Source: a virus. From it: 64,000 bases of DNA. The DNA is taken from the IMG/VR virus record IMGVR_UViG_3300021961_000068, positions 9,028 to 73,027 of that record; one strand, given 5' to 3'. The notes beneath the pieces are model-generated. The model was not told the DNA's origin. It saw nothing but the letters and a program-made list of their open reading frames with translations, and did no database searches. Below, one piece after another: positions 3,422 through 35,343 of this stretch. Made by a program: the position numbers and the translations under genes. Numbering within the stretch: position 1 is the first letter of the stretch; each line of letters starts with the position of its first letter.

Positions 3422-3778
3422 TTGAAAAGTCAAGTTATAGACGACTTTTTTGATACGGAAAAAGCCGCATGCAGAGGTAAAGACATCACATTGTTTTATC
3501 CAGTCATCTCACCGCGCCAAAGAAGAATTGAGCCAACTCAATCAGCAAAGTTTATTTGCGGTCAATGCTCTGTTGCGGAAGGCTGTTTAGAGTATTCTCT
3601 CCATTTTGAACCGCTTGGTGTATGGGGTGGTAGAAATGAGGTTGAGAGAGAAATTTTGAGGCGCCAAAAAAACATAAGTTTGCCTTTTGACCGTCAAGCA
3701 TCTCATTCGGTACGACGGTCAGTGAACGCTGGGAGGGTTGGCAGGATGGTTAACCGATTAAACTCTTTAGATGAGTAA
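3422..3778 (+). CDS. whiB: WhiB-family transcription factor
   Basis: AAC...AKFICGQCSVAEGCLEYSL...GVWGG: four Cys plus G[IV]WGG motif. Confidence 0.92.
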   Translation: MKSQVIDDFFDTEKAACRGKDITLFYPVISPRQRRIEPTQSAKFICGQCSVAEGCLEYSLHFEPLGVWGGRNEVEREILRRQKNISLPFDRQASHSVRRSVNAGRVGRMVNRLNSLDE

Positions 3779-7161: not shown

Positions 7162-7199
7162 TATTTGTCTCCTACATGGGAGACAACGGGGGAGACGCA

Positions 7200-8631: not shown

Positions 8632-9063
8632 ATGTCAGCATCAGCCCCACTCCTTCTCCCAATGACAGTCACAGGCGCTTGCGCAACATCTTCAACAGTT
8701 GTCGCTCGCACTCCTGTTGCAGGTCGTGTCCGTGGAATCACAGTCGCAGTTGGTACTGCTCCTGCAGGTTCGGCACTTAACGGAACTGTTCGCAAGGCAA
8801 CAGCCGCAGGAACAGTTATCGGAACTTGGTCAATCGCAGCCGCTGGAACTTCGGCAGTCGCAACAATGTCAACAGTAGACGGCGCTGATGAACTCGCCGC
8901 TGACGACTTGGTTCACCTCGTGGTCGCTGCTGTAGGTTCAGGAACTGCTGGTTCAAACTTGACCGCTCTTCTTCAGATTGATCAGTCAGCAGATCAAGAC
9001 GGCTCAGATGTTGTTGCAGTAGCAACACTTCGTGGCAACCACCCAGGTGGCGTAGTCGCCTGA
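8632..9063 (+). CDS. Ala/Val/Thr-rich protein, possible virion decoration protein
   Basis: GGAGG RBS, downstream terminator, beta-rich composition. Confidence 0.6.
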   Translation: MSASAPLLLPMTVTGACATSSTVVARTPVAGRVRGITVAVGTAPAGSALNGTVRKATAAGTVIGTWSIAAAGTSAVATMSTVDGADELAADDLVHLVVAAVGSGTAGSNLTALLQIDQSADQDGSDVVAVATLRGNHPGGVVA

Positions 9064-11911: not shown

Positions 11912-12157
11912 TTAGTTTTTGGGTGCGAACTTGTTTTCTGACTTCATCGCTTTCATTTCCTCTGCAAACAGTTCATCAAATTCTTCGTTGTACCGTGTCT
12001 GTAAAACAAAAGATGCTCGTCGTTTTGCCTCATTGCGGCGCTTTGCCTCAATTTTGCGAAGTTCTGCTCGCCGTGCACGTTCCTCGGCTGGAAGTGGCTT
12101 ACGTCCACGACTAACTCCGAGTTTCTTTTTAAGTTGCTGATATGTTGTTGTAGCCAT
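11912..12157 (-). CDS. small basic protein (RGRKP, AT-hook-like)
   Basis: 81 aa, GGAG RBS, own terminator. Confidence 0.7.
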   Translation of the reverse strand: MATTTYQQLKKKLGVSRGRKPLPAEERARRAELRKIEAKRRNEAKRRASFVLQTRYNEEFDELFAEEMKAMKSENKFAPKN

Positions 12158-12273
12158 TAAGGGCTCCTTAATCTTTCTGTTTAGTTGTTTATGTACTTCT
12201 TACAAGAAAGATACTAACTAGTTTCTCAAAGAAAAACAACTTTTATTAAAAAAAATATTAAATACATTTCTGT

Positions 12274-12310
12274 TTATCCACAGGGCTCACCATAGGGCTT
12301 ATCCACAGGG
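12274..12310 (+). promoter_or_regulatory. two direct-repeat perfect DnaA boxes (TTATCCACA-GGG)
   Basis: TTATCCACA at 12274-12282 and 12299-12307, next to an AT-rich tract at 12230-12270. Confidence 0.7.
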
Positions 12311-12396
12311 TTTTAGGGGGTTGCTAAACCCCATCTATGGGGGCTACACTTACGGTATAAGTAATATAAACTACAAATACTAAAGAAAGAAAAACA

Positions 12397-12885
12397 ATGG
12401 AAACATCCTTAATAACCCCACCAACGGTCAGAAATCTAGAAGAAGCAAGAGAGCAATGTCTTGAATATGACGCAGTTTTGACCGCAGGACCAAACAAAGA
12501 TGAAGTCAGCGACTTCAATCACCCTATTCATAAAGTCGTTCAGTTTATTGACACTGCGTATGAGAAGAACGGCGGACCGACCTTAGAGAATGTTGTTGAA
12601 CTTATAGAGTTCGGCGCAGGTGTCCCCAAATTGTTGGTGCACTGTCACGCAGGTATTTCCCGTTCAACAGCAACAGCGTGGGGGGTATCAATAGCAAACG
12701 GCAACGATCCTTTGGAAGCATTTCTATACCTGCAAGATAAACACCCTGAAGAAAAAGGATATTTCGGTCACGGTAAAAGACCCTTTGCGCCGAACATCCT
12801 AATTGTTAAGCACCTAGATACATATTTCAATCTTGGTACTACTCTTTTGGAAATTCGCAACAAGTATTCACGGAGAGGTTGGTAA
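12397..12885 (+). CDS. protein tyrosine/dual-specificity phosphatase-like protein
   Basis: LLVHCHAGISRS = HCx5R P-loop; downstream PN motif. Confidence 0.85.
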   Translation: METSLITPPTVRNLEEAREQCLEYDAVLTAGPNKDEVSDFNHPIHKVVQFIDTAYEKNGGPTLENVVELIEFGAGVPKLLVHCHAGISRSTATAWGVSIANGNDPLEAFLYLQDKHPEEKGYFGHGKRPFAPNILIVKHLDTYFNLGTTLLEIRNKYSRRGW

Positions 12886-12889
12886 AGCA

Positions 12890-13861
12890 ATGAAGGTTTT
12901 TTGGAACGAAAACTACACATCCATCAAATATGACTTTGATACATCAAGAAAATCCAACAATATTGTTCGTTTAATTAACAAAATAGCGTCAGAAACACCT
13001 ACGAAAGTTCGTGTGTTGCAGGATGTTCCGACAGTAGAGATAGTTGATCCCGAACAAGTATCCGACATTTCAAAAACAGAAAAATTGATTAACAGATGGT
13101 TGCACCCCACATATGTTGAGGCGTTAAAAACGAACAACAACCCACGACTATCGCAAAGTCAAGGTTTTGAATGGTGTCCCAACACTTACGAGTTTGCTCG
13201 TGCACATACACACGGTTTAATCGCATCAGTTGATCAAGTTTTAGTGAATGGTGGGAGAAGCGGAAGTCTTTCTTCAGGTTTGCATCACGCATCAAAAACT
13301 AGTGGCGCAGGATTTTGCACAATCAACGGCATAGCACTATCAGCAATTCACGCATACGAGCAAGGTCTTGAACCTATAGTTTTAGACTTTGACGCACATT
13401 GCGGTGGAGGCACGATGGACTTTTTAAAAACTTTCAATGGTGTTTTGCAAACCAAAGACACTATTTTAGGTAAATCAACACCCTTAATCCGTCACATTGA
13501 TTTATCAACCAACTACTTTGACGAATACGAGATTAAAGTTCATGAAACTTGGGCGAATCTGCATGTTCTTGACTGGGAAGAAGATTATTTAGACGAAGTA
13601 CAAAAATCTCTTTCTTTAACAGAACCTCACATCACCGACAAAACTGTGTTTATTTATAATGCAGGGATTGACCCTATTGGTTCGCAGGGGATAGATGAGG
13701 AAGTTATCGGGCAACGAGAAAAAATTGTTTCCGAATTCATTGGTAACCGCAAGGCTGTCTTTGCGTTAGCAGGCGGTTATTCAGGTATGTCAACAACACG
13801 AGACGATGTGGCAAACATGCACCTCAAAACGATTTATGGTTGGTCATGGCAGACGAAATAA
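12890..13861 (+). CDS. histone deacetylase (HDAC/AcuC) family protein
   Basis: GLHHA...GFCTING, LDFDAHCGGGT, YNAGIDP, AGGY zinc-deacetylase motifs. Confidence 0.88.
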   Translation: MKVFWNENYTSIKYDFDTSRKSNNIVRLINKIASETPTKVRVLQDVPTVEIVDPEQVSDISKTEKLINRWLHPTYVEALKTNNNPRLSQSQGFEWCPNTYEFARAHTHGLIASVDQVLVNGGRSGSLSSGLHHASKTSGAGFCTINGIALSAIHAYEQGLEPIVLDFDAHCGGGTMDFLKTFNGVLQTKDTILGKSTPLIRHIDLSTNYFDEYEIKVHETWANLHVLDWEEDYLDEVQKSLSLTEPHITDKTVFIYNAGIDPIGSQGIDEEVIGQREKIVSEFIGNRKAVFALAGGYSGMSTTRDDVANMHLKTIYGWSWQTK

Positions 13862-14112
13862 TTCACGGGCTTTACGCCACATATACGAACGAAAAATGCA
13901 GATGCCCCATCTGTAAAAAAGCCGCCGCCGAATATATGCGCGGTTACAGAAAAACAGCCGTAGGTAAAGACAATGCAAAGTTTTATCAAATTGTTGCAAA
14001 TAAACGCTCACAAATGGCTATCAAATGGATCAAAGATAATCACCCAGAACAATGGGATAAGATATGTGCTAGAGCATTAAAAATTGTTGAAAAACAAGAA
14101 AGCAGAGAATAA
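13846..14112 (+). CDS. small zinc-finger-like protein (HG...Y...CRCxxC)
   Basis: HGLYATYTNEKCRCPIC. Confidence 0.65.
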   Translation: MADEIIHGLYATYTNEKCRCPICKKAAAEYMRGYRKTAVGKDNAKFYQIVANKRSQMAIKWIKDNHPEQWDKICARALKIVEKQESRE

Positions 14113-14113
14113 T

Positions 14114-14335
14114 ATGCCTTATGGTGCCGAAAGCATGGAAAGCCGTTTTGATGACTTCGTGGAAGAAACAAACAAAAAGATTGACGAACTTGAAGCAAAA
14201 ATTCGTTCACTTCAAACAGAAATTAATAAAACAAAAACTTTAAAAAACACCAACAATGCGGTTAACATAACTAACCAAGACATAAAAAACTCTCTTGGTG
14301 CAACAATCAGATCAGTTGGGGATATTGTTAAATAA
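14114..14335 (+). CDS. hypothetical coiled-coil protein
   Basis: ATG 14114 directly after the previous stop. Confidence 0.6.
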   Translation: MPYGAESMESRFDDFVEETNKKIDELEAKIRSLQTEINKTKTLKNTNNAVNITNQDIKNSLGATIRSVGDIVK

Positions 14336-14363
14336 GGCTTAATATATCTACTAAGATATCAAA

Positions 14364-14522
14364 ATGCTTGAAAAAACATCTTTAGCCGAAACAGAATTTA
14401 ACACCCTATACAACAACGCTACACGCAGATTACAAGATGAGATAGCGTCGCTCAAACTAAAGATCGGCGAACTTCAAAGTCAAATAAATTGGTTAGAGCG
14501 AGAAAACTCTAAATATTTGTAA
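14364..14522 (+). CDS. small coiled-coil protein (52 aa, not in ORF track)
   Basis: MLEKTSLAETEFNTLYNNATRRLQDEIASLKLKIGELQSQINWLERENSKYL. Confidence 0.55.
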   Translation: MLEKTSLAETEFNTLYNNATRRLQDEIASLKLKIGELQSQINWLERENSKYL

Positions 14523-14526
14523 CCTT

Positions 14527-14877
14527 CTATTGTTTTGCTTTTACAACTCCGTCAGGAATGACAGCGAATCTGCATTTCCCTTCAGGGGCGACAGGGAGAG
14601 AAATTATCTTGCACGAAGAACCGCCTTCGTATAAAACACAATTAGAACACTTGACACCTATCTGCGCCACCTCATTTTTTGATGGATCTTCATAGCCAGC
14701 CCACACTCCTGTGTAATCTTGGTTAAATTTTCCATATTTTTGAGTTATTTCAATAAGCGAATCGGCGAGTGCTCGTTCTTCGGGGTGAAGAGTTGGTGTT
14801 TGTGGTTTAGATATGGCAATCATCCTCATAGGGAGTTGCGACATCAGCATTTCAATAAAAGATTTTTCTGTTGCCAT
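14527..14877 (-). CDS. hypothetical protein with HiPIP-like four-Cys motif
   Basis: KCSNCVLY...SCKII...PEGKC. Confidence 0.6.
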   Translation of the reverse strand: MATEKSFIEMLMSQLPMRMIAISKPQTPTLHPEERALADSLIEITQKYGKFNQDYTGVWAGYEDPSKNEVAQIGVKCSNCVLYEGGSSCKIISLPVAPEGKCRFAVIPDGVVKAKQ

Positions 14878-14878
14878 T

Positions 14879-15286
14879 TTACTTTGTTTCCTTTTTGAAC
14901 TCTGCCCAAGTTTTATCTCCGACGCCATAATATTCTCTAGCGTTCCCTGATTGAATCATGTCAATATTGAGGCACGCTGTTTGAGGGTCATCAATTTTGT
15001 CTGATGAATAAATTCTTGCCAAAACACGACCATACTTGTCGCTCTTATCAGGAATTGTGTTAACAAAAACCCATTTATGATTAGTCATCCAATCCTGAAC
15101 AAACTTCTTGGCTTTCAAACCGAGTTCCTTTTCTTTCAAATCTTTTGTTCGTGATTCAGGGGTGTTGATGCCATACAGGCGGACACGAATTTTGTGGTGA
15201 ACACTAAAACCAAGATCAACCATTAAATCAACGGTGTCGCCGTCAACTACTTTGAGAATTGTTGCTCCATACCAAAATCGTTCCAC
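14879..15286 (-). CDS. staphylococcal nuclease (SNase)-like protein
   Basis: KVVDGDTV, RVRLYGINTPE, DKYGRVLA. Confidence 0.88.
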   Translation of the reverse strand: MERFWYGATILKVVDGDTVDLMVDLGFSVHHKIRVRLYGINTPESRTKDLKEKELGLKAKKFVQDWMTNHKWVFVNTIPDKSDKYGRVLARIYSSDKIDDPQTACLNIDMIQSGNAREYYGVGDKTWAEFKKETK

Positions 15287-15288
15287 GG

Positions 15289-16050
15289 CTAATCCTTTTC
15301 TTTAGAGTTCTTATAGCGCTCCAACAATCGTCTGCCTTTTTCGGCAAGGCGAGCCGCCGATTCTCTGTCTTGTGGAACTGGTTCACCCCACGCCGCGGCG
15401 GAAAGAGCAAGTCGTGTTGGGCGTCCTTTTTCGTCTTTCATGGGACCTGAAGGGTTTGTGAAGAACCGTGTAAGGAATGATCCTTTGCGACGCATTTTCT
15501 CTGGTGTGTCAGCGCGACCCTTGACACCAGGTTTTAGGTTTGATCCTTCGGTGCGATTAAAGTGCGCTCTACCCGCGGCGGTTAAACCACCTTTAGGGTC
15601 TCGTAACGGTTCAGCAGATTTTTCTTTAATGATTGGTCCACCAGCGACCCATGCGCGACATGTTCTTTTTGATGCACATTTGAAATCAAACGCTTCGCAA
15701 TATCCAAGTTCACCAGCGCTATCTATCGCTTCCCATTCATCTTGTCTTTCCCCACCGGTGACACCAGATTCAATACATTTTTTCATTGACGGGGTTTGAA
15801 TAAAAAGAGAACAGTTGCCGCACAGTTGTTTCTTTGCAGATGTTGTATCCACATCCCACTCTTTTGCCAACTTGCCCCAATACTCTGTGTTGGGTTCGGC
15901 GGGATTCAGTGGACCATACATTGCTGTCTTGATTGCTTTGCCTCTGTTGGCAAGATTGACTGCAATGTCCTGTGTTGCTTTCGGGCATTGTTTATCGGCT
16001 TTGATGCGAACAGAAATCTGTTGCTCAGCCAAAATGTCAGAGAATTTCAT
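15289..16050 (-). CDS. two-module head-region protein (Cys-rich domain + DUF6321-like KGGL...NLK...SF domain)
   Basis: CGNC...GYC...CASKRTC, then DPKGGLTAAGRAHFNRTEGSNLKPGV...RRKGSFLTRF; family assignment from memory. Confidence 0.6.
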   Translation of the reverse strand: MKFSDILAEQQISVRIKADKQCPKATQDIAVNLANRGKAIKTAMYGPLNPAEPNTEYWGKLAKEWDVDTTSAKKQLCGNCSLFIQTPSMKKCIESGVTGGERQDEWEAIDSAGELGYCEAFDFKCASKRTCRAWVAGGPIIKEKSAEPLRDPKGGLTAAGRAHFNRTEGSNLKPGVKGRADTPEKMRRKGSFLTRFFTNPSGPMKDEKGRPTRLALSAAAWGEPVPQDRESAARLAEKGRRLLERYKNSKEKD

Positions 16051-16075
16051 TGTCCCTCATTATCTCACAAAACAC

Positions 16076-16115
16076 AAAACCCCCACCCCAACCTTGCGGT
16101 TAGAGCGGGGGTTCT
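16076..16115 (-). terminator. intrinsic terminator after the major capsid gene
   Basis: AACCCCCGCTCTAACC-GCAA-GGTTGGGGTGGGGGTT then a T-rich tract on the minus strand. Confidence 0.75.
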
Positions 16116-16131
16116 GTTAATTACTTAGTGA

Positions 16132-17445
16132 TTACGGTGCTGCTGGTGCGCCGTCAAAACTTACCTTCACGAACGACTCTGGTCGCTTCACAGCGAGAGC
16201 CAATCGTTGCTCGGCAAGGATCACGATTGCGTTGCGGACGAAGAAGTCTGCATGCTGTTCGCTCACTCGGATGCTTGGTGATTCACGGTCGTAGATTTGT
16301 GCTCCCGTACCGAATGCACCGATCAATGCTGTACCTTCAGCAATTGCTGGAGTGTCCACTACTGGAATTCTCCACAAGCGCTGTTCGCCACCCATTGCAA
16401 CAGAGACTGCTACGACGTAAGCGCCGTTGCCATCTTTGCTGAGTTCAATGTCTTCCCAATCGTTCGGGTTAAGAACGATACCCGATGGCTCGTAGTAAGC
16501 CAAGAAGGAAAGGGTTGCGGCACGGCGGACTGCGTCAGCCTTGGTGTCAGTCTGACCTGCTACTGCTGAGTATGTGCCTGCCGACCAATCGTAGGTTTGC
16601 ACGCCCGGTGTATTCAAGATACCTCGGAGGTTTTCGCCTGATCCTGAACCGTTCAAGATTTGTGCATCTTCCTGCAAACGGAGACCGTACATCAACTCGT
16701 TGTCGATGATTGAGCGTAGTTGTGGCTCATCAGCAAGAACATTGCGGTGTGCGGCTTCCCAGTGTGCCATTGTGCGAACAGGAGCCTGCTCACCAACGAA
16801 GGTGAAGGACGACTGTGGCTTCGCACCGAAGGCATCGCCTGAACGCTCAGATACTGCTGCTGCGTTGTTGACGAAACCTGTCATACGGAAGTATTCAATG
16901 ATCGCGGCGTTCGTGGTGCGGCTTGGGAACAAGTCACGGACACGCTTCGTGCGCATTGGTGGGATAACCATTGCATCGCGTTGAATGGTTCCAAACGAGC
17001 CAGGTGTACCTGTCGGAAGTGCCGAGTACAGATCTTTTACGCTGTAATCGCTACCCGAACGGTATGGGCTTGGCATGTTTGCTGAACCGCTTGCGAGCAA
17101 CGACTTGAACTCTGCTGAAGCAAGGAATGCTTCGCCGATTGTCTTTGCACGCATTGGCTGTACTGCGTTTTGCAATTCTGCAGTTGCGTAAGCCGAAGCC
17201 TGTGCTACTGAATCTTGTGGTTCTGAAGCCCATTTGTCGGCATCGCGCATTGACTCAAGGCTCTCAACGAGGGACTTGATTTCGCGGATGTCTGACATGT
17301 TCTTGTCAAACGCTGTTTTTTGTTCTGCTGATACGAGAACAGTGCCATCTTCAATTTTGAAGTTGTCTGCGATCTCTTTGTTTTCTGCCATCTTGGCACG
17401 CATTGCGCCTTGAAGTTCAGTTAAACGACTGTTGTCAAATGACAT
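16132..17445 (-). CDS. HK97-family major capsid protein
   Basis: Coiled-coil delta domain; EDAQILNGSGSGENLRGIL, IVLNPNDW, LWRIPVV, FVRNAIVILAEQRLALAVKRPESFV; GGAG RBS before ATG 17445. Confidence 0.95.
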   Translation of the reverse strand: MSFDNSRLTELQGAMRAKMAENKEIADNFKIEDGTVLVSAEQKTAFDKNMSDIREIKSLVESLESMRDADKWASEPQDSVAQASAYATAELQNAVQPMRAKTIGEAFLASAEFKSLLASGSANMPSPYRSGSDYSVKDLYSALPTGTPGSFGTIQRDAMVIPPMRTKRVRDLFPSRTTNAAIIEYFRMTGFVNNAAAVSERSGDAFGAKPQSSFTFVGEQAPVRTMAHWEAAHRNVLADEPQLRSIIDNELMYGLRLQEDAQILNGSGSGENLRGILNTPGVQTYDWSAGTYSAVAGQTDTKADAVRRAATLSFLAYYEPSGIVLNPNDWEDIELSKDGNGAYVVAVSVAMGGEQRLWRIPVVDTPAIAEGTALIGAFGTGAQIYDRESPSIRVSEQHADFFVRNAIVILAEQRLALAVKRPESFVKVSFDGAPAAP

Positions 17446-17546
17446 GATTTTCACTCCTAGTGAATTGGATTTATGTTGGTGTTTACTTATTTTTTATTAT
17501 TAAGACTTCGGTAAGCACCTAGTCCAGTTACATTTACTGTAATACG

Positions 17547-17580
17547 AGAATAACATCAAAGTAACATCAGAAATGCAACC
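17547..17580 (-). promoter_or_regulatory. putative promoter GGTTGCATTT-N18-TATTCT upstream of the capsid gene
   Basis: Matches motif at 6827 and 48403 with identical spacing. Confidence 0.5.
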
Positions 17581-17593
17581 CCCATGATTGGGT

Positions 17594-19276
17594 TTATTTT
17601 GCGTGATATCGTTTTACGACTTGTGGGCAACATTTTTCGGCGTACTTGACTCCGTATTCGCCGTCGTCAAATCCTGCCCATTTTTTGGTTGTTTTTCGGT
17701 TCCGCCAAGGGTGGTCTAATGGGAGCAGGTCATTATCATCAAAATATTTGACATCTTTAGGTTTGTCTGACATCAATAGTGATAAGAACTTGGAAATGCG
17801 CTTATTTGCTGAGGCTTTGTCACCATCTTGAAGACCTCGTAGGTATACATTTTTGAGGTCTCGCAGGTTAGCCCGCTGTGCAGGCTTGGCTTTAGCGTTG
17901 TGTTGACGCACACGGACAGCAAGATTGTTGATATCGGTGCTTGTGACTGTCGGCGGTTTCTTGCGGGCTTTGGGTACGCCTTTGAATAAAAACAAGCCTT
18001 CACCTAGTTTTTCGGCAGGCTGGTCAAGTGATTTTTTTTCTTGGTTTTTAACAATAACAAACCCAGACAGTTCCCCTTTTTCATTGGTTGACGTTTCAAT
18101 GAGTACTTCGTACCCTTTGTCCTTAAGCGTCTTTGCGTAGTTTTCTAATGTTGTTTGTAACATTCTTGTGGCTTTTTCAAAGTTTGCTTTTCTTTGATCA
18201 TCAGAAAGACCGATCAAGCCCACATTTCGGTAAACACCCATTGGAACTGTGTGTTCAATTTCAAAATCGCCATTTTCTAATTTTCTAGATCGCCAACCAG
18301 CCGTCGTTGATCCATAACCACGAACCATAGCCCCACCCCTGTAGCCTGCCTTGCGATAATTACGATCATTTAGTGCTCGGGCAATTCCTACCTGTGTTGG
18401 ATTTCTGAACTTTTCCTTTATGATTTTTGGGACTACTGGTATTTTGTCTTTCCCGCCAACAATTCCACCAGTTGTGAACCCATCCCCGTCGCCGTCCACG
18501 AGTTCGTCACTAGGTTTTACTCCGATCGGCGTACCAAGAACCTTTTTCCTGAATTTTGAACCTCGTCGTCTTGGATTGTTCCTAGGGCTGTTATCCCCTC
18601 GGATACCTGTGCGACGGTTGTAGTCAGACACGTTTGTGCAGGGCATCCAAACAAGTTTTCCATCTCGTGCCGTGTAACGGCGAATACCAATACACCCAAG
18701 ATTCCTTGAACGGATACGGGCAGACTCAGGGTTACTGAAAGTATCAGGGTCGGTTGAACGGCTAACAAAGTTAACGAAACCTTTTTCCTCTACATCATCT
18801 TCAGCGTCTTTCCCCGAGAAAGAACCAGTGACCAACCCACCACCCGGTAAGGTCGCAATACCTGTAATAGGTTTCTCATCAAGTTTTTCCCAACCTTTAC
18901 GGGGTTTATGGTCGCAAGGCGTGTAATACCTTTTCCCCGCAAGGATCACAGTGCGGACACCTCCGCAACCACGCGCCTTAGAAATAGATAGAGCGTCAGC
19001 ACGGCTTTCGTAATACGCATCAGATTTTGTTTCCAAACGCTTAGTGCGTTGAACCATCTTAGGCAAAGGTTTCTTTTTCTTTGAAGCAAGGGCTTTCAGA
19101 TATTCTTCTTTGCCTTTTTTGATCGCCTCATACTCTTCATACGACCCGCACGGCATCCAATTGCCGTCTTCTCCTTCATGCGCACCACTACACCCGAGTT
19201 GACGGGCAACACGCATCGCCTGCTCTCTTGTGACCTTTGGTTTCTCTGCTTTAACAGAGAAAGGGATTGATTCCAC
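17594..19276 (-). CDS. multi-module head-associated protein with three A..LGC.G....W/Y.PC repeats
   Basis: ARQLGCSGAH...WMPC, SKARGCGGV...YTPC, SRNLGCIGI...WMPC (DUF3721-like); DGDGDG motif; C-terminal LKNVYLRG...DNDLLP module. Confidence 0.7.
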   Translation of the reverse strand: MESIPFSVKAEKPKVTREQAMRVARQLGCSGAHEGEDGNWMPCGSYEEYEAIKKGKEEYLKALASKKKKPLPKMVQRTKRLETKSDAYYESRADALSISKARGCGGVRTVILAGKRYYTPCDHKPRKGWEKLDEKPITGIATLPGGGLVTGSFSGKDAEDDVEEKGFVNFVSRSTDPDTFSNPESARIRSRNLGCIGIRRYTARDGKLVWMPCTNVSDYNRRTGIRGDNSPRNNPRRRGSKFRKKVLGTPIGVKPSDELVDGDGDGFTTGGIVGGKDKIPVVPKIIKEKFRNPTQVGIARALNDRNYRKAGYRGGAMVRGYGSTTAGWRSRKLENGDFEIEHTVPMGVYRNVGLIGLSDDQRKANFEKATRMLQTTLENYAKTLKDKGYEVLIETSTNEKGELSGFVIVKNQEKKSLDQPAEKLGEGLFLFKGVPKARKKPPTVTSTDINNLAVRVRQHNAKAKPAQRANLRDLKNVYLRGLQDGDKASANKRISKFLSLLMSDKPKDVKYFDDNDLLPLDHPWRNRKTTKKWAGFDDGEYGVKYAEKCCPQVVKRYHAK

Positions 19277-19279
19277 GGT

Positions 19280-19543
19280 TTAACCTTTTTTGCGTTTACG
19301 TTGTGATGTTTCTGTTTCTGTTTCTATAGATGTTGCTCCAGCGAACTTTGGGAACAATTCATCAACTCGTTCAGGGTTTTCTGTCAAAAAATAAACCATC
19401 TCATCTAATGCGTTTTCGTCTTTAGGATTTTCATTAGCGTAATGGAATCCAATTGTGAGTATTCGGCTACGAGTTTTTTCGTCTTTGATTTTTTCAAATA
19501 ATGACATCCGTATTTCGGTTCGTTGTTCTTCTGTAATTTTCAT
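19280..19543 (-). CDS. small orphan protein, candidate immunity protein for the upstream GNAT effector
   Basis: 87 aa, translationally coupled (TAATG) to 19543-23553. Confidence 0.55.
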   Translation of the reverse strand: MKITEEQRTEIRMSLFEKIKDEKTRSRILTIGFHYANENPKDENALDEMVYFLTENPERVDELFPKFAGATSIETETETSQRKRKKG

Positions 19544-22500
19544 TATCGTATGTTCCCGTCTGTTGGAGCCCGCAGACTTCTTGGTGTTACATCTGAATTT
19601 ACTGGAATACGTGGTCGTCTTGTACGAGTCACCCTAGGAGTAGGGGCAACTGCTTGCCCTCGTCTTCTACTACCTATTCTTTGTTCAGCAAAACTTAAAA
19701 AACCATGACCACCCTTCGCGTTTTGTTTGAACCAGTTTTTTATTTGGTTTTCTCTTCTATTACTACCAACACCGCTACCGCCCGGCAGTGAACGAGATTG
19801 GCTAACAGCAAAAATAAATTCTTGGTGTGTCCCTGGTGGTCGTTTCTCAACTAGGTATTTTAGTCTCCAATATTCTTCCGGCGAAGAAATTAGTGGTGAA
19901 TATCCAAATTTTGCATACTTGTCAAGTTCGGATTGAAATCTGCCAACATTTAGCGGATTGTCGGGTTTGAATCCAACTTTAGCCCAAACAAACTCACCGT
20001 CATCTGCTGGTCCAACCTCTGCTGTGGTCACACCTATTTTTTGCAAGAAATGGAAAGCATGTTGATTATAAAGTGTTGCTATACCTGCTCCCTTGTCAGT
20101 TTCACCTCGTCTGTTAATAAATAAACGACTCTGATACACCTTGTTTGAACCTAATTGAATGCTTCTGACTGATTCACCAATATCGGCAGCAATAATATTG
20201 CCATTGCTGTCTATCTCATGAAAACGAATACCTATGGTGTAATTAGGTCCAGCACCAGAAACATCAGCCTCCGATTTATATGTGCGACCATTTTGTCCTT
20301 TTATTGGACCAATTGAATATGCTTCTTTGAGGTACGTTTTTTTATCTGTGCGGCTTAAAGCAGCCCATTTTTGGGGAGTCATATCGGCGTATGGTTCGTT
20401 CGCTGATCCATACTTTTCGTCTAAATAATTAAACAAAACGTCTTGTCGTTTTTCAATCTGCGCAGAAATTTTGGCTTGTATTTGGTCGCCAACAGGTCCC
20501 ATTGCTTGACGTCTTTGAGAAACTTCGGGGTCGTTTAAATTCATGAACTCGTCACCTGGATTATTGGATGTTGCTCTATGTATCAACGCAGAATCAGCAT
20601 CCCAGTTATCAACGACAAGTTGTAATTGACCGACCTGTGTTAACTGTTTATACAGTTCGGTATTTTTGTATACTTGTTCCTTGACTTGCAGAGCAACAAT
20701 TTGACGGTCTGCCAATAATGTGTTTAATCTTTCTTTTGTGCTTGCAAGAAGTGTTTCCGCATCCTCTTTAGTGCGAAGTGAGCCATTTGGGTCAATATAT
20801 CCCCTAAGTCTTGCTTCTCTTTCTTTTCTCGCATCTCTAACACTTAATGTTTGAATTTTAGCAATTGCATTACCGTGCTCAGCAGACAACGAGTCTTCAA
20901 TTGATTTAACTATCAAATTCCATTGAGTTTTGGATGCTGCTCGTCTTACTTCAATTTCTTGTTCATCAATTGCATCTAAGACTTTTTGTGCGTTTCCACC
21001 AGCGGTAACTTTTGCTACAGCATTATCAAAAACGGGAGCCATATTTCTTACTTGCGCAAAATTAATTGGCTGTACAGGACCTGCTAACTGTGCCTGTCGT
21101 AATGCTTCTGCTTGTTCTCGGGCTATTCTTTCTGCCTCAAGAACCGCCACTGCTTCTTTTCTTGTTTCAAGATTTTCTAGTCTTTGTTCTAGGTTGGATA
21201 CATTGCCTAGGTTGGCGATTATTCTGTTTAATCTCTGTTCATTTGCGTTTCGCCCACTAGCATCGTCCGCTTCACGATTGCTTATCAATGCAGTTAATTC
21301 TGTCATAGCCGCTCGCAAAGCCGTTTCGCGTTCTCTTTTTCTTTCAGCAATAGTTGAATTTACTGAATCTAGACTCATGCCATTTACAGTACTTAGACGA
21401 CCCCGAGCATCGCTTTCCGCATTTTGTTTTGCAGCCACCGCCGCCCGTTCAAGTCGTTGCAATACTTGCGTTCTCTCTGCTTCGGGGAAAACTTCAGCAA
21501 AATCTGTTATGAGGTCATTAACTTTTTGCTCTAAATCTTGTCTACGTGCTTGTCCATCTGGGGTATTGATTGCGTTTTGTATTGCTGCGCTAAGTCTTGA
21601 TACTGGGGCGGTTCTAGCAAATGCCGCTTGCGTGTTTGGTGCCGCAGGTGCAGGGTCAGGCGCAGGCGCATCATTGCGATTAAGAACATTTTGCTTGTGC
21701 CAAGCAATTGCATCTTCGCGGTTGGTAAACCCTTGTTTATCTTGCGCAGGTCGACCATGGATAACAAACCATGTATTGGTAACAGCCTGCTGGTCAATGA
21801 TGTCGCCGTTTTCGTGCGTAATAATGGTGCCAGGTCCTTGATTCCACCCTTGTGGTAAAGCATTTTGTGCCCCACGATCAGGTGCTTGAGGTGCCGCGGG
21901 TGTCGGGTCGGGCGTAGGTGCTTGAGGTGCCGCGTCTGGTCTCGGTGACTGTGCTTCGGCTGCTGGTGGTGGATTATTTTCAGGTCGTCTTGTTGCAGTT
22001 CTTTCTGCTTGCCGTTCCGATGCACGACGACGATTATTTCTATTATTGGTTCTGTTGCCCTGAGCAACCTGTTCTCGTCTTTGAATTTCCGCTAATACTC
22101 GTTGATATTCGGGATTTTCTTTATCAAAATCTGGGTCTGCTTCCATTTCTCTTCGCATACCTTGGAGAACTTCATCTGATTCTGGTGCCAACAAATTTAC
22201 ATTTTGTCTTTCGTTTGCATTTGGTCGGCGTCTTTGAGGGCGAGCAGGAATATTTCTTGGTGCGCGTTCATCCGTGCGAGGGGCGCCGGGTTCAATAATT
22301 TCTCGTTCCATTCTCCGTTGTTCAGATTCACGAAGATTAGGTCGTCGCCTTTGACGGGCAGGACGAGCCTGCGGCGCTGGTGGTTCAAAATCTTGTGGTG
22401 CGCTACGACCGTGAGCATCTTTCCAAGCGTCACGAAGATTTTCTTTATTGATTGCGTACCATTCTCGGCGTGTCAACATTCCTGCGTTGCCTCCACCTTC

Positions 22501-23553
22501 ACGGATTTCGCGGACACGCTGTGCGTACTCATCGTATTTTCGTAATACGTAAGGTTTGAAGTCTTCTGTTTCTCCTGCGTCTGATGCGTCTCGTGCTGTG
22601 AGTACATCAACATTTTCAGGTTGTGGTGCAACTTGTGGGCGTGGTCGTCGTGCGGGTCTTGGAGTTGGTTCTGTTTCTGGTGTTACATCTTGTCTTGGAA
22701 GTTCAGGAACTTCCCGAGTTAGGGTTGCAGGACGAGCCCGTGGTCTATCCCTATTAATTCTTCGGTTAATAACACCGGCTAAGCCTTCGTTATTTACTCT
22801 TTCTAACAAATTCCCTCTTTGTTGAGGTTCTCCTCCCTCAAGACGCTCGGCAACGTTTCGTAGACCGCCTTCAATGCGACCCGGCTCGGCGACCCCACTT
22901 AACCTTCTGATCATTCGTGCGTTGCGACGGTCAAGGCGACGTTTCCGTTTGTCATCATCTCGTTGCTCTAGTCGTTCACCGATGTCGGCGATTTGGTTTG
23001 CGATTCGTCGCGCTACTCCCCATCCACAAGATCTGCCGAATCTGTCAGTAATCTGTCCGCCGTAGCGTGTCCCCACAGGGCATCGCCAGCCACCTCTACG
23101 GTTCGTTCCAGGAATAGACAAACCTGGATCCCAAAGAGCACGAACTCTTTTAACTTCGTAGTTGAAAGTTGTTTTTTGTTGTTCACTAATAAATGTGGCG
23201 GCTTTATAAGAAATAACGTTTTCAAATTCATATTCAGAAAATATTTTAATTGGTGCATCAGAAACAGACATAATAGGAAGATAGTCCCTGTAAATAAAGT
23301 CCGATTTGCTTCCACTTTTCAACGCCGAGGGAACTGCCGATTGAGGCATCGGACCTTGCACTGTCATTCCCGAATCTAAGGCAGCAGTTAATTCGGTTTT
23401 ATTTATTTGAGATTTACTGTATTCTTCACTAAATGCTTTGGCAATGTTTTTAGCGTCATTGGAAAGAGGTTTAAAAGTGCTTCCTTCAGCGGATGACATA
23501 ACAAGCATGAATGGCTTGCCGTTTCGTGTTTTGATAACAAACGAGGTTTTCAT
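19543..23553 (-). CDS. large modular protein: RCPVG domain + low-complexity linker + C-terminal GNAT-like acetyltransferase
   Basis: N-terminal WRCPVGTRYGGQITDRFGRSCGWG; C-terminal LFIN...KGAGIATLYN...IGVTTAEV...GEFVWAKVGF. Confidence 0.7.
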   Translation of the reverse strand: MKTSFVIKTRNGKPFMLVMSSAEGSTFKPLSNDAKNIAKAFSEEYSKSQINKTELTAALDSGMTVQGPMPQSAVPSALKSGSKSDFIYRDYLPIMSVSDAPIKIFSEYEFENVISYKAATFISEQQKTTFNYEVKRVRALWDPGLSIPGTNRRGGWRCPVGTRYGGQITDRFGRSCGWGVARRIANQIADIGERLEQRDDDKRKRRLDRRNARMIRRLSGVAEPGRIEGGLRNVAERLEGGEPQQRGNLLERVNNEGLAGVINRRINRDRPRARPATLTREVPELPRQDVTPETEPTPRPARRPRPQVAPQPENVDVLTARDASDAGETEDFKPYVLRKYDEYAQRVREIREGGGNAGMLTRREWYAINKENLRDAWKDAHGRSAPQDFEPPAPQARPARQRRRPNLRESEQRRMEREIIEPGAPRTDERAPRNIPARPQRRRPNANERQNVNLLAPESDEVLQGMRREMEADPDFDKENPEYQRVLAEIQRREQVAQGNRTNNRNNRRRASERQAERTATRRPENNPPPAAEAQSPRPDAAPQAPTPDPTPAAPQAPDRGAQNALPQGWNQGPGTIITHENGDIIDQQAVTNTWFVIHGRPAQDKQGFTNREDAIAWHKQNVLNRNDAPAPDPAPAAPNTQAAFARTAPVSRLSAAIQNAINTPDGQARRQDLEQKVNDLITDFAEVFPEAERTQVLQRLERAAVAAKQNAESDARGRLSTVNGMSLDSVNSTIAERKRERETALRAAMTELTALISNREADDASGRNANEQRLNRIIANLGNVSNLEQRLENLETRKEAVAVLEAERIAREQAEALRQAQLAGPVQPINFAQVRNMAPVFDNAVAKVTAGGNAQKVLDAIDEQEIEVRRAASKTQWNLIVKSIEDSLSAEHGNAIAKIQTLSVRDARKEREARLRGYIDPNGSLRTKEDAETLLASTKERLNTLLADRQIVALQVKEQVYKNTELYKQLTQVGQLQLVVDNWDADSALIHRATSNNPGDEFMNLNDPEVSQRRQAMGPVGDQIQAKISAQIEKRQDVLFNYLDEKYGSANEPYADMTPQKWAALSRTDKKTYLKEAYSIGPIKGQNGRTYKSEADVSGAGPNYTIGIRFHEIDSNGNIIAADIGESVRSIQLGSNKVYQSRLFINRRGETDKGAGIATLYNQHAFHFLQKIGVTTAEVGPADDGEFVWAKVGFKPDNPLNVGRFQSELDKYAKFGYSPLISSPEEYWRLKYLVEKRPPGTHQEFIFAVSQSRSLPGGSGVGSNRRENQIKNWFKQNAKGGHGFLSFAEQRIGSRRRGQAVAPTPRVTRTRRPRIPVNSDVTPRSLRAPTDGNIR

Positions 23554-23654
23554 TTAGGTCTTTCTTCTTGATATATCCCTAGAAACGAGGGAGAGAATAC
23601 CTTAAAATGGTATCACTATTATGTAAACCCAAAAGAGCAGTATAGGCACCGCCA

Positions 23655-23945
23655 CTAATTATTCAGGCTGTAACCCATTTCCTGGATTAACCCATCAATC
23701 TTAATTTTTGCTTTACCGCTATATTCACCGCTTTCGCAGTCGTAATACGAAAAGCCAGATGTGACGTCTTCAAATCCTGCCATTTCAGGACTTTCTTTAG
23801 CCACATCTTTATACCAATTAGCAAAAAATTCGTCTTCTTCTTTGTCGTCAGAGTATCTAACTACCCCATCTTCTTTTTCAATAAAAATAATAGGGTTAAG
23901 GTTTGGAACAGCAATTCCTGTCAACCTGAAAATTTTATATCGCAT
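23655..23945 (-). CDS. small acidic orphan protein, candidate immunity protein for the upstream kinase effector
   Basis: 96 aa, starts 10 bp after the kinase-gene stop; AT-rich. Confidence 0.55.
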   Translation of the reverse strand: MRYKIFRLTGIAVPNLNPIIFIEKEDGVVRYSDDKEEDEFFANWYKDVAKESPEMAGFEDVTSGFSYYDCESGEYSGKAKIKIDGLIQEMGYSLNN

Positions 23946-23955
23946 ATATACTTGA

Positions 23956-26658
23956 CTATATCACAGGTGCGAGCATCGCATCAACTATTTGTTCTGGAGT
24001 CTGCGACAACACCCAGTCTATTCTTTGTTGAGTAAATGAAATTTTGCGTGGTTCACTCGCTCGCGCACCTGACGCTCCAGTAACAGGCGGTACTTGTGGG
24101 TTTTGACCAGCGGCATCAATAACATTTTGACCAAACTCAGCGAATCTTTTTTGTGCTTCAGCCTCGCGCAAAAGTTGTTGCGATTTTCTCGCTTCTTCAA
24201 TCATTGCTGTTCTAGTCCTGCCAGCATCACGACCAGTTTCGGAGTCATGTTTAGTTCTCAAAGACCCAATTAATTTGTTTCTTCTACCTCCGTAGGAACT
24301 CTTTAACCACTTTTTAAAACCTGTTTCGTCCGCATAAGACAAATCACGGTCAAATTCTCTAGCCGCAAAACCAAGAGACGGGTCATACGGAATAACATGG
24401 TCTTGACCATTGGCATCCCTTTGGACAAAAAAGTTACCACCGTGTCTATCTGTGTTTAGAATCAAAAAATCTAACATTGTCAAACGAATTTTTTCGTTTA
24501 ACGGGATTGAATTTTCGTACCCATTTCTTTGTGGTGGGGCTACTGTGCCGTCAATGTAGTTTTCTGCATGTTCAAACAAAATTGGTCTACCTTGACCATG
24601 TCTGTCTCTGTACACAGGTCCAGCAAATCTAAATTCGCCTACCGGGTATCCAAGTCGTCCTTGAATTTCGTTTCCTAAAATCTCATTAACATCTTCATTA
24701 TTCCTATATCTTGTTCCGTCATATTTTATAAGTAGTGTTTTACCAGTATTTGCGTCTTTGTATTGCTGTATTTGACCATTACTGTTTCGCCCCAGATCAC
24801 CTAATGGTTTTAATTTGATAAAACGTTTAGACGCATCAACTGGTCCGCCCGGCTGACCGGGTCTGCCTACGCGTATTGTCGTTGAGTTTTTCTTGATTGC
24901 TTCATACACAAACTCATCGGGGACATCTGCTAAATCGCCACCATTGTTGACATGTGCTACCGCATCTTGCTTAGTGTTGATGCTTTTGTTCCCTATATCA
25001 ACTCTTTTACCTGTCCCTAAACCGTTAAAATCTCTTGGGGCAAGTTTGTTATCGTTTTCTTTTGCTTTAGCCAGGTCTGAATCCACTGTTCTTGGGGCTG
25101 GACGACCATCGTTATCGTTTCCTCTTTGTTGTTGCCTATTTGTCTCTCTTGGTCTTCTTGGTGCTCTTGGTGCTCTTGGAGCAGGTGGAGCAGGTGGAGC
25201 AGGTGGTTCTGATCGTGCAGGGGCAGGTTCCTGTGTAATTATGGCTCCGTCTAAGTCCCTTGTTCTTGTATCTTGTAAATTCCCAATACGATTACGTAGC
25301 GCATCCCTTCTTCTTTGTTCTTCTCGAACAATTGCGTCTCTTGCACCGTTTCGCTCCATTTGGTCAAGATTGCGTTCTGCTTCTGATACAAGTTTGCGTA
25401 GTTCAGCAATTTGTCTTTGGCGCTCAACTTCGTCTGATGGCATGCGAGCGTTTACAGCATTTTCCGCATTATCCGCTCTCTGTCTAGCGTCTTCAATTGC
25501 TGCTTCAGCCATTGCTTCACGGTTTTGTCGTAATTCTTCTGAACGAGCAGCATTATCGCTGTTTCCGGGTTGCCGTGGCGGTTGAGGAGGTTGACTTCTT
25601 GGTTGGGCTGGCGTATTAGTCTCTTTTTTAATTTTTCGGTTTACATAATCGCCTCGTGCGTTACGTTGATTGTTATCGTCGTAGTAGCGACCAAATCTAC
25701 GTTCAAGTTCCGCCTTGTCGTCTCCTTGATATGCGTCTTCGCGCCAGTAAGCGGTATCTGGAAGTCCTCTTTCACGAAAACGATTACGCACATTTCTTTG
25801 TGACCGAGTATCAGGAAGACTCCCACCTAGGTCTGGTGCGTTAAAATCAGGATCTGGTTCTACAACTAATGGCTGTGGAGGCGCTGATGGTGGCTTTCGT
25901 TGTGGAACCGCTGTAGGTACGGGCTTAGCGCCGTCAACGAAATCTGCTTCAGGTTTTCTGCGTGCGGTTCTCCTTGCACCCTGTTGTGTGGCGGCTCTGC
26001 GTCGCCCTCTTGGTCTATTAGGTTTTGGTGGTTCACCTGTACGAGGTGCACCGGGTTCTACGATTTCTCGTTCCATTCGTCTTTGTTCTGATTCACGAAG
26101 ATTTCCGCGACGACGTCTTGCAGGTTTTCGTCCACGTTGTTCTCGTTCTACAAGTTCCACAATTTGGTCTGTATTAATTTGTGGTGACGGTCTACCTCTT
26201 CTGCGTTGTGGACGAGGTGAAACTGAATCAATATCAGCAACTGGGAGTTGAGGTGGTTGCTCGCCGTCAAGTGCTTCAGCAACACCTCTTGCGCCACGCT
26301 CAAGAAAACCGGGTTTCTGCTGACGAGACAAAAGCCTTTGCATACGAGCATTCCGTTTAGCGATACGGTTATTTCGTTTGCGGTCATCAATATTCTCTAA
26401 ACGCTCACCAATGTCGGCAATTTGATTAGCAATACGCCTAGCAACACCCCAACCACACGAACGACCAAACCTGTCAGTTATTTGACCGCCGTAACGAGTA
26501 CCGACAGGACAACGCCAACCACCACGGCGGTTAGTGCCGGGGATGGAAAGACTTGGATCCCATAAAGCACGGACACCTTTTACTTCGTAGTTGAAAGTGC
26601 TTGCTGTTTGTTCTGAGATGAAAGTCAAAGCCTTGAAGTTGACTTCATTTTTCTGCAT
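23956..26658 (-). CDS. large modular protein: RCPVG domain + linker + C-terminal HipA/PI3K-like kinase
   Basis: Same N-terminus as 19543-23553; C-terminal LLIKY, NEILG, LDFLILNTDRHGGNF, IPYDPSLGF. Confidence 0.75.
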   Translation of the reverse strand: MQKNEVNFKALTFISEQTASTFNYEVKGVRALWDPSLSIPGTNRRGGWRCPVGTRYGGQITDRFGRSCGWGVARRIANQIADIGERLENIDDRKRNNRIAKRNARMQRLLSRQQKPGFLERGARGVAEALDGEQPPQLPVADIDSVSPRPQRRRGRPSPQINTDQIVELVEREQRGRKPARRRRGNLRESEQRRMEREIVEPGAPRTGEPPKPNRPRGRRRAATQQGARRTARRKPEADFVDGAKPVPTAVPQRKPPSAPPQPLVVEPDPDFNAPDLGGSLPDTRSQRNVRNRFRERGLPDTAYWREDAYQGDDKAELERRFGRYYDDNNQRNARGDYVNRKIKKETNTPAQPRSQPPQPPRQPGNSDNAARSEELRQNREAMAEAAIEDARQRADNAENAVNARMPSDEVERQRQIAELRKLVSEAERNLDQMERNGARDAIVREEQRRRDALRNRIGNLQDTRTRDLDGAIITQEPAPARSEPPAPPAPPAPRAPRAPRRPRETNRQQQRGNDNDGRPAPRTVDSDLAKAKENDNKLAPRDFNGLGTGKRVDIGNKSINTKQDAVAHVNNGGDLADVPDEFVYEAIKKNSTTIRVGRPGQPGGPVDASKRFIKLKPLGDLGRNSNGQIQQYKDANTGKTLLIKYDGTRYRNNEDVNEILGNEIQGRLGYPVGEFRFAGPVYRDRHGQGRPILFEHAENYIDGTVAPPQRNGYENSIPLNEKIRLTMLDFLILNTDRHGGNFFVQRDANGQDHVIPYDPSLGFAAREFDRDLSYADETGFKKWLKSSYGGRRNKLIGSLRTKHDSETGRDAGRTRTAMIEEARKSQQLLREAEAQKRFAEFGQNVIDAAGQNPQVPPVTGASGARASEPRKISFTQQRIDWVLSQTPEQIVDAMLAPVI

Positions 26659-35251: not shown

Positions 35252-35343
35252 GGTACTCCAAAAAATGTTTGTTTATTAACAATAAACTATTTGGAGCGCC
35301 AAAAAATGAACACTTTAAGTATATTGGGGGTATTTTACTGAAA

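Follow-up and report, generated by a model that had tools for sequence, protein, structure and literature searches.

A deacetylase gene that accompanies an acyltransferase-tipped head-module protein across related phages: partial support for matched modifying and demodifying enzymes

The 64,000-nt stretch at positions 9,028 to 73,027 of the IMG/VR virus record IMGVR_UViG_3300021961_000068 (hereafter the window) encodes four putative enzymes that raise one question: does a phage carry both the writers and the erasers of two protein modifications? The presumed erasers are a small Cys-based protein phosphatase (12397-12885, plus strand) and a Zn-dependent HDAC-family deacylase (12890-13861, plus strand). 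The presumed writers are the C-terminal domains, or tips, of two large proteins encoded in the head gene module on the minus strand. P0001 (1336 aa, 19543-23553) ends in a GNAT-like acyltransferase tip of the 'A2' family, and P0002 (900 aa, 23956-26658) ends in a kinase-fold tip. The first-pass annotation of the window had suggested that these genes may form two writer/eraser circuits. All four features were recovered here, at the positions given there or displaced by no more than a few tens of bases. This interpretation of matched pairs is partly supported by the present analysis. The acetyl pair co-occurs across related phages; the phospho pair is weak, since the phosphatase is found only with the kinase and the kinase is often found alone.

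The distribution of the four enzymes was assessed in three sets of viral records. For the first set 80 capsid-related loci were collected. Fifty of the underlying records, the 38 with a length of 40 kb or more and 12 of the 14 of 30-40 kb, were searched in full, the queries being the phosphatase, the deacetylase and a profile of each tip. The phosphatase was matched in 27 of the 50 records (one match being weak), the HDAC in 20, the kinase tip in 37 and the acyltransferase tip in 23. Three records, G023, G039 and G044, are cut off at the relevant side and were dropped; with the window added, this left 48 assessable rows. HDAC and acyltransferase tip are both present in 20 of these rows and both absent in 26; the tip stands without HDAC in two rows and the HDAC without tip in none, so that the two agree in 46 of 48. 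On the capsid tree the state with all four enzymes is found at six places at least. It is interleaved with the states phosphatase and kinase only (8 records), HDAC, kinase and acyltransferase (2 records), kinase only, and none. Independent contrasts were drawn on the well-supported branches of this tree. For HDAC and acyltransferase tip, 4.0 of 4 contrasts run the same way and none the opposite way (p 0.125). The comparison pairs gave 0.7 of 4 (HDAC and kinase), 0.9 of 4 (HDAC and phosphatase), 0.8 of 3 (phosphatase and acyltransferase) and 1.7 of 3 (phosphatase and kinase). The co-occurrence check proposed by the first-pass annotation thus came out positive for the acetyl pair: HDAC and acyltransferase tip come and go jointly against a constant background of kinase and phosphatase.

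The second set started from an HDAC profile, which found 80 viral loci. From these, 37 records of at least 17 kb that are not part of the first set were searched, 11 of them being at least 53% complete (near-complete below). The acyltransferase domain is present in 8 of these 11 (G051, G052, G058, G064, G065, G067, G069 and G070). In G058, G064, G065 and G069 it shares a single open reading frame (ORF) of 2300-2950 aa with the kinase domain. The phosphatase is present only in G051 and G052 among the near-complete records of this set. The third set was built around the capsid protein of a different clade (locus L057), which led to 80 loci; 27 records that had a length of roughly 30 kb upwards and were not in the other sets were searched. 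They gave no match to HDAC or phosphatase, 17 to the kinase tip and 10 partial acyltransferase-like matches. The ten partial matches all lie in records that are 20-35% complete, and six near-complete records have neither the HDAC nor the domain. When the near-complete records of the sets are pooled, the domain is found in 16 of 19 HDAC-positive and 0 of 15 HDAC-negative records (Fisher p 4.5e-7, uncorrected for relatedness). When the acyltransferase alignment was used to scan viral contigs, just 28 loci were returned, most of which were already in the sample. Distant phages, with HDAC identities of only 30-38%, show the association as well. The HDAC-acyltransferase association is specific and is repeated in several lineages.

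Several observations weigh against a coupling of the two enzymes. With four contrasts a p value of 0.125 is the best that can be reached, and the power is low. One of these contrasts, G019 against G029, is doubtful because G029 ends approximately 13 kb downstream of the capsid gene, before the place of the G019 genes, both of which lie 16-22 kb downstream of it. Three of the 11 near-complete records in the second set, G057 (142,563 bases), the provirus G068 and the 37-kb G071, have an HDAC and no acyltransferase domain. Conversely, twelve records, all 20-45% complete, contain a divergent partial acyltransferase-like copy in giant ORFs and no HDAC. The chance of missing the gene in all twelve is about 0.015 if one HDAC per genome and a random place are assumed; the twelve records are interrelated, and gene position is not random. 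An HDAC homologue is likewise encoded by two cultured phages, E3 (33% identity) and Magritte (25% identity), in which neither of the tips nor the phosphatase found a match.

Such exceptions in both directions would be expected if there were no functional link at all and the pattern had arisen from shared descent and mosaic inheritance of accessory genes within one phage group. The concentration of the double-positive records in few clades, with 12 in the window's own clade, the fragmentary state of many records and a sign test that cannot reach significance all agree with this explanation. We nevertheless consider it rather improbable. The double-positive state is found at separate places of the capsid tree, six or more, amid double-negative states. 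The HDAC follows the acyltransferase tip, not its neighbour, the phosphatase, nor the kinase. The association also reaches the distant phages mentioned above and genes that are tens of kb apart. The contrast of G008 with G012 and G043 holds at syntenic places: a phosphatase neighbourhood without HDAC is found there, and a kinase-tipped head protein stands where the acyltransferase-tipped one would be. Tight linkage was considered as a cause of the association and rejected, because the HDAC and acyltransferase genes lie approximately 40-90 kb apart in G034 and G035. The association is thus not easily explained by linkage or by simple shared descent.

In some loci the two genes are nevertheless direct neighbours. 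An A2-family ORF follows immediately downstream of the HDAC gene in 5 of the 80 HDAC loci of viral contigs; these ORFs encode 402 aa in L113, 604 aa in L115, 392 aa in the near-identical L118 and L120, and 975 aa in L126. The phosphatase gene is directly upstream of the HDAC gene in 36 of the 80, many of these loci being close relatives. Clustering of the ORFs around the 80 loci revealed no conserved neighbour besides the phosphatase gene, a ribonucleotide reductase gene and small ORFs of unknown function. In L020 the phosphatase, the HDAC and a 392-aa acyltransferase-family protein are encoded on one strand with a 17-nt gap. This 392-aa protein contains QGKGIG and DDGIYTWSRAGY, has a sub-threshold Acetyltransf_1 match and aligns to the tip-family profile in hhalign with a probability of 95.7% and E 1e-8. 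Stand-alone acyltransferase-family ORFs are placed behind the HDAC gene at 18478-19656 of L020 and at 975-2183 of L113. The operon of phosphatase, HDAC and a stand-alone protein of 392-402 aa covers 17047-19656 in L020, 1754-4363 in L120 and 34-2183 in L113, where the contig starts at the HDAC and any phosphatase gene would lie outside it.

The phospho pair behaves differently from the acetyl pair. Among the 48 rows of the first set, phosphatase and kinase tip are both present in 26 and both absent in 12, the kinase tip stands alone in 10 and the phosphatase in none. The kinase tip is found in 11 of 11 phosphatase-positive near-complete records. It is also found in 9 of the 23 phosphatase-negative ones and in 17 of the 27 records of the third set, none of which has the phosphatase, and this frequent absence of the partner speaks against the phospho circuit. 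The part of the co-occurrence claim that stood is that the phosphatase never occurs without the kinase tip; the reverse does not hold. The idea that the phosphatase is obligatory wherever a kinase tip exists was rejected for the same reason, and because many kinase-bearing relatives have no phosphatase, the enzyme looks dispensable. A coupling of phosphatase and kinase is therefore doubtful, although possible.

A phosphatase that is retained without the other eraser would be expected if both erasers acted on marks made by the host, in host takeover or counter-defence, and had nothing to do with the virion tips. Actinobacteria have many Ser/Thr/Tyr kinases, and the marks in question would be those of actinobacterial Ser/Thr/Tyr-kinase signalling, of Pat-type acetyltransferase regulation or of kinase and GNAT defence toxins. 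The 8 records that keep the phosphatase without HDAC and acyltransferase tip agree with this, as do E3 and Magritte with an HDAC and none of the other three enzymes. Both erasers are moreover small, stand-alone proteins encoded away from the head module, on the strand of the replication genes. The joint gain and loss of HDAC and acyltransferase tip is, however, not predicted by an action on host marks, and the tip accompanies the HDAC in all 20 HDAC-positive rows of the first set and in 4 of 4 contrasts. Neither is an A2 acyltransferase directly behind the HDAC in 5 of 80 loci. The PADLOC defence-system models gave zero matches for the phosphatase, the deacetylase or the acyltransferase tip, which for the two erasers shows only that they are not known defence proteins. 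We therefore regard an exclusive action on host marks as unlikely. The same applies to the alternative of the first-pass annotation that the erasers counter host toxins: it does not predict the co-occurrence of HDAC and acyltransferase, and for the phosphatase it may hold.

The two erasers themselves were recognized correctly in the first-pass annotation as an HCx5R phosphatase and a zinc HDAC-family deacetylase encoded by adjacent genes. Only 4 nt separate the phosphatase stop codon TAA (12883-12885) from the deacetylase ATG (12890), and a Shine-Dalgarno-like GGAGAGG lies just upstream of the latter, so the two genes are probably translationally coupled. The phosphatase has 162 aa and belongs to the superfamily of protein tyrosine and dual-specificity phosphatases (PTP/DSP). 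Its phosphate-binding loop VHCHAGISRST, of the type HCx5R(S/T), is invariant across 22 homologues. Residue D52 is likewise invariant in the alignment of these sequences and is a candidate for the general-acid Asp, which in this superfamily sits on a separate loop. The match to Pfam DSPc (E 1.8e-4, 21.7 bits) is under the cut-off of 33.5 bits, and the family profile matches solved small PTPs and DSPs with E 6.5e-6 to 3e-3.

The deacetylase of 323 aa is a member of the Zn HDAC family according to its sequence, with 65.7 bits against Pfam Hist_deacetyl (PF00850; cut-off 27.9). All catalytic residues are conserved, and the 18 homologues show no variation at H132, H133, D166, D168, H170, D261 and Y297. 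These correspond to the catalytic His-His pair, the DxDxH-GxGT block with its zinc ligands, the Asp of NAGxDP and the catalytic Tyr of GGY, of which HH, DxDxH-GxGT and GGY align to the HDAC6 motifs; their catalytic roles are presumed from what is known of HDAC8 and HDAC6. In the PDB the family profile matched HDAC6 (E 2.9e-22), HDAC1/2 and bacterial HDAC-like and lysine deacylase chains. The polyamine deacetylase HDAC10 was matched at E 1e-11, similar to HDAC1/2, and sequence matches do not separate a protein from a small-molecule substrate class. It could therefore be argued that the deacetylase, and perhaps also the acyltransferase tip, act on a small molecule, such as acetyl-polyamines, a cell-wall or thiol precursor or an antibiotic-like compound, and form a metabolic pair. 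GNAT-fold enzymes often acetylate small molecules, and the HDAC fold includes acetylpolyamine amidohydrolases (APAH) besides HDAC10. Viral N-acetylspermidine amidohydrolases and phage spermidine N-acetyltransferases exist as well, as described in the available part of PMC9992855. The viral amidohydrolases described there, found with bacterial APAH as the query, are confined to giant eukaryotic viruses. The best matches of the deacetylase in the window are in turn HDAC6 and the small bacterial chains named lysine deacylase or HDAC.

The acyltransferase tip bears on the same issue. It comprises approximately 255 aa at 19669-20433 on the minus strand and gave zero sequence matches in Pfam, PDB and NCBIfam. 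Its structural model (predicted local distance difference test, pLDDT, 81) matched p300/CBP histone acetyltransferase, GCN5, a S. aureus GNAT and OrfE in Foldseek with probabilities of 0.99-1.0. The template modelling (TM) scores on the query are only 0.22-0.26, because some 100-170 columns align to the small GNATs. The model also matches many viral proteins named acetyltransferase and one named 'Phage head morphogenesis domain'. The assignment of the P0001 tip as a GNAT-like acyltransferase by its core fold, the mixed sheet with the beta4-alpha3 CoA site, is thus supported, and the domain placed at about 19700-20300 in the first-pass annotation is a real one. The tip presumably uses acetyl-CoA, judging by the modelled fold. 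Since its best structural matches, at low TM, are protein acetyltransferases (p300/CBP and GCN5), and since the domain mostly ends very large proteins, often beside a kinase-fold domain, effectors fit better than enzymes of small-molecule metabolism. The metabolic pair is accordingly the least probable of the alternatives considered here.

The A2 family is rare, with 572 cluster representatives at E of 1e-3 or below among 1.84 billion. The 150 best listed are mostly of 700-7600 aa with the domain often near the C-terminus, and about 20 are under 500 aa. The Protein Atlas provided a weak GNAT lead only, one cluster with PF00583 in 20% of its members. Two very long proteins of the public library, P0005 (4528 aa) and P0089 (7601 aa), have 7 and 8 separate matches to the tip profile, respectively; either true tandem repeats of the domain or errors of assembly may account for this. 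Giant ORFs of 2300-3500 aa with acyltransferase-like and kinase domains side by side in one polypeptide are found in G031, G047, G058, G064, G065, G069, G088, G099 and G109, the records behind the loci L057, L062, L131, L150, L153, L160, L208, L248 and L215.

P0001 and P0002 have a common architecture. An N-terminal module of approximately 135 aa (residues 111-245 of P0001, 22819-23223; residues 3-137 of P0002, 26248-26652) is shared at 74% identity and is followed by charged, Pro/Gln-rich stretches and a different C-terminal domain. The stretch between module and tip is a long low-complexity or coiled middle in P0001 and a charged, Pro-rich linker in P0002. By their sequences the two proteins are paralogous and differ in their tips. 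The window's own record has one copy of each tip. The tips are swapped even between very close relatives (the window, L004 and G001). The capsid protein of G001 is 97% identical to that of the window, and its best kinase-profile match reaches only E 5e-36, compared with 6.5e-100 in the window, while the common N-terminal module stays 77-83% identical among the tip-swapped relatives. In tblastn searches of cultured phages neither of the two tips nor the N-terminal module gave a match, so no cultured phage was found that could serve as a model for the writers.

The kinase tip (residues 561-900, 340 aa; 23959-24978, minus strand) has a fold of the PI3/4K/HipA/CtkA type with the motif LNTDRHGGNF. 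The kinase domain that had been reported at about 24000-24850 was confirmed, with its core at approximately 24290-24890. The residues K85, E99, D177-R178-H179-x-x-N182 and D199 show little or no variation among 23 homologues. They match the ATP-binding Lys, the helix-C Glu, the catalytic loop D-x-H-x-x-N and the metal-binding Asp, and the catalytic and activation loops align to those of ATM, mTOR and PI4K. The AlphaFold model (pLDDT 84, predicted TM score 0.87) has the bilobal kinase fold and matched CtkA, PI4KII-alpha, HipA, CotH and Fam20 in Foldseek with a probability of 1.0 and modest TM scores of 0.35-0.40. Because the score against Pfam PI3_PI4_kinase is below the cut-off (16 bits, E 0.012; cut-off 27.1), the tip is classified as kinase-fold and not as a member of this Pfam family. 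It also weakly matches models of the PADLOC candidate defence system PDC-M03A (E 3e-7), so a related kinase fold is in use on the host side too. In G005, G006, G007, G011, G013, G019 and G052 the kinase-profile match crosses a single TAG or TAA near its C-terminal end, in frames of about 893-954 aa, which may reflect the gene end or readthrough. Catalytic residues are invariant across the homologues in all four enzyme families, and on this ground the four enzymes look active.

Delivery of modifying enzymes into the host cell is a known ability of phages, with T4 Alt as the classical packaged modifier. We propose that P0001 and P0002 are carried inside the head and injected together with the DNA, like T4 Alt or the polyvalent proteins; we infer this from the position of their genes between the protease and capsid genes. 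Once injected, the writers would act on proteins of the host (or of the phage) ahead of all phage gene expression. The deacetylase would be the enzymatic counterpart of the acyltransferase and would strip its marks once the phage genome is expressed. It might also keep newly made acyltransferase from harming the producer cell before packaging, and would then be an enzymatic antidote like DarG or Tri1 and not a binding antidote. The phosphatase may do likewise for the kinase tips. A role of the erasers in protection from superinfection, as put forward in the first-pass annotation, would be speculative. Packaging, timing and substrates are deduced from gene position and family knowledge. For head-packaged effectors with enzymatic erasers, taken as a whole, we see the chances as evenly balanced, and for the coupling of HDAC and acyltransferase by itself as somewhat better than even. 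The most specific version is tentative: a deacetylase that is a dedicated antidote to a virion-delivered acyltransferase, with an optional parallel arm of kinase and phosphatase, in a reversible protein-modification circuit separated in time.

Besides the exceptions to the co-occurrence, features of the enzymes themselves tell against the proposed scheme, and so does its foundation in gene position and family knowledge. The GNAT pyrophosphate loop has the motif Q/R-x-x-G-x-G/A. In the acyltransferase tips the acetyl-CoA loop is degenerate and variable, reading TDKGAG in the window and DRGAD or KNNG in other members. The stand-alone relative P0155 has the canonical loop QGKGIG and scores 15.5 bits against Acetyltransf_1 (cut-off 20.7), and no GNAT sequence model is matched at cut-off by the window's tip or by P0155. 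The HDAC family includes polyamine deacetylases, and the HDAC10 match noted above is of this kind. Finally, where phosphatase, HDAC and acyltransferase are encoded in one operon, writer and eraser would be made together, which does not fit a simple early/late model.

The genomic setting is consistent with a phage of actinobacteria. The window covers 64 kb of a 73-kb record with an estimated completeness of 51%, and related records have sizes of up to 100-145 kb. WhiB is a marker for actinobacteria and for their phages, and a WhiB-family gene is located at 3422-3778 on the plus strand (match at 3458-3655, 54.2 bits, above the Pfam cut-off), pointing to an actinobacterial host. The use of whiB to recognize freshwater actinophages is described in PMC6802176, whose available text has no word for any of the four enzymes. 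The capsid protein is of the HK97 type, its nearest cultured relatives being Brevibacterium phage Cantare and Gordonia phages with 46-48% identity. The window is part of an uncultured, WhiB-encoding actinophage of approximately 140 kb. Its GC content is only 39-49%. A megablast search with positions 12000-27000 against 50,697 cultured phage records gave zero matches.

The head module was labelled correctly in the first-pass annotation: the genes of P0001 and P0002 lie between the portal and protease genes (33116-37554) and the capsid gene (16132-17454), all on the minus strand. The portal gene with its MuF-like C-terminal part (35344-37554) forms the upstream boundary of the module and is followed by the prohead protease gene (33116-35251). 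Proteins of 498, 788 and 579 aa are encoded between the protease and P0002; the 579-aa protein is weakly similar to the N-terminal module of P0002 (30% over 80 aa, E 0.001). After P0002 the order is a 96-aa ORF, P0001, an 87-aa ORF, a 560-aa DUF3721 protein (17594-19276), the HK97-type major capsid protein, which served as the marker for the tree, a DUF6321 protein (15289-16050) and an endonuclease (14879-15286; phrog_452 'endonuclease', E 1e-37), whose gene lies between the capsid gene and the phosphatase-deacetylase cassette. A DUF5872 protein is encoded at 26659-28398 of the same strand, and the three DUF proteins have domains of unknown function only.

The cassette is convergent with the head module and runs up to 14335, with two small ORFs behind the phosphatase and deacetylase genes. 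The first of the small ORFs (90 aa, 13840-14112, plus strand) has no assigned function; relatives also encode it next to the phosphatase, even where they have no HDAC. The second (83 aa, 14084-14335, plus strand) is coiled-coil-like and is the last gene of the cassette. A DNA methyltransferase gene is located upstream of the cassette (7176-8576, plus strand). Pfam searches with the small cassette ORFs and the other head proteins gave sub-threshold matches only, and an NCBIfam search with five proteins gave nothing useful. Promoter and terminator scans around the cassette returned nothing above the shuffled expectation, so its transcription units are putative.

If the coupling is true, bacterial viruses control the lifetime of their own protein marks through matching removal enzymes. 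It would provide the first functional lead for the rare A2 acyltransferase domain, which is found mostly inside very large proteins, and a functional lead for phage HDAC genes, until now annotated by name alone. The closest parallel on the writer side is the polyvalent proteins (Iyer, Burroughs, Anand, de Souza and Aravind 2017, PMC5512222), large packaged proteins with protein-modifying domains whose genes lie among those of the head. Four classes of such domains are listed in the available part of that paper, kinases and GNATs being two of them, and the relatives analysed here also fuse acyltransferase and kinase in one ORF of 2300-3500 aa. The polyvalent kinases described there form a truncated Ser/Thr/Tyr-kinase clade without C-lobe from phages of Verrucomicrobia, Chlamydia and Bacteroidetes, whereas the tip of P0002 is of the PI3/4K/HipA/CtkA type. 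The polyvalent GNATs are RimI-like, unlike the separate acyltransferase family without Pfam match described here. The writers in the window are also not fused to MuF, the MuF-like part being on the portal protein. The packaging of P0001 and P0002 is presumed from the position of their genes between the protease and capsid genes. The main text of PMC5512222 has 0 occurrences of 'deacetylase' or 'phosphatase' and describes no eraser partners.

A phage kinase acting on host proteins is also known from T7. According to the available passages of PMC13645617, the T7 kinase (gp0.7) phosphorylates many host proteins early and broadly disarms host defences. It differs from the kinase tip in being expressed from the genome and not packaged, in belonging to an unrelated clade with a DPV motif and in having autoinhibitory phosphosites that limit its activity; no phage phosphatase partner was seen in these passages. 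The viral polyamine enzymes (Li et al. 2023, PMC9992855) likewise include functional HDAC-fold amidohydrolases encoded by viruses and GNAT acetyltransferases encoded by phages. In the available part of that paper these enzymes act on spermidine, the amidohydrolases occur only in Imitervirales and the phage acetyltransferases are stand-alone and SpeG/BltD-like. Full-text literature searches, covering papers other than subscription-only ones and without supplementary files, found no phage writer/eraser pair of the kind proposed here. Among cultured phages the closest homologue of the deacetylase is gp202 of Rhodococcus phage E3, annotated as 'putative histone deacetylase protein' (NC_021347; 33% identity over 98%). 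E3, with a genome of approximately 142 kb, infects an actinobacterium, as the source of the window presumably does. Approximately 0.6 kb, occupied by a single 160-aa gene (gp203), separates its gp202 gene from the virion structural genes gp204 and gp205 downstream. It differs in having no detectable homologue of the window's phosphatase or of either tip.

The proposed logic is most similar to that of DarT/DarG and Tre1/Tri1, in which a modifying enzyme is undone by a co-inherited partner enzyme that strips the same mark. Those are adjacent bacterial toxin genes, and the mark is ADP-ribosylation; here acylation would be concerned and the writer is presumed to be in the virion, and the writer and eraser genes of the window are not adjacent but lie 6-10 kb apart on opposite strands. 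Co-inheritance, by contrast, is shared with these systems: it was found for HDAC and acyltransferase, and in one direction only for phosphatase and kinase. If the coupling is true, it would also be similar to the way in which some bacterial pathogens pair effectors of opposing activities.

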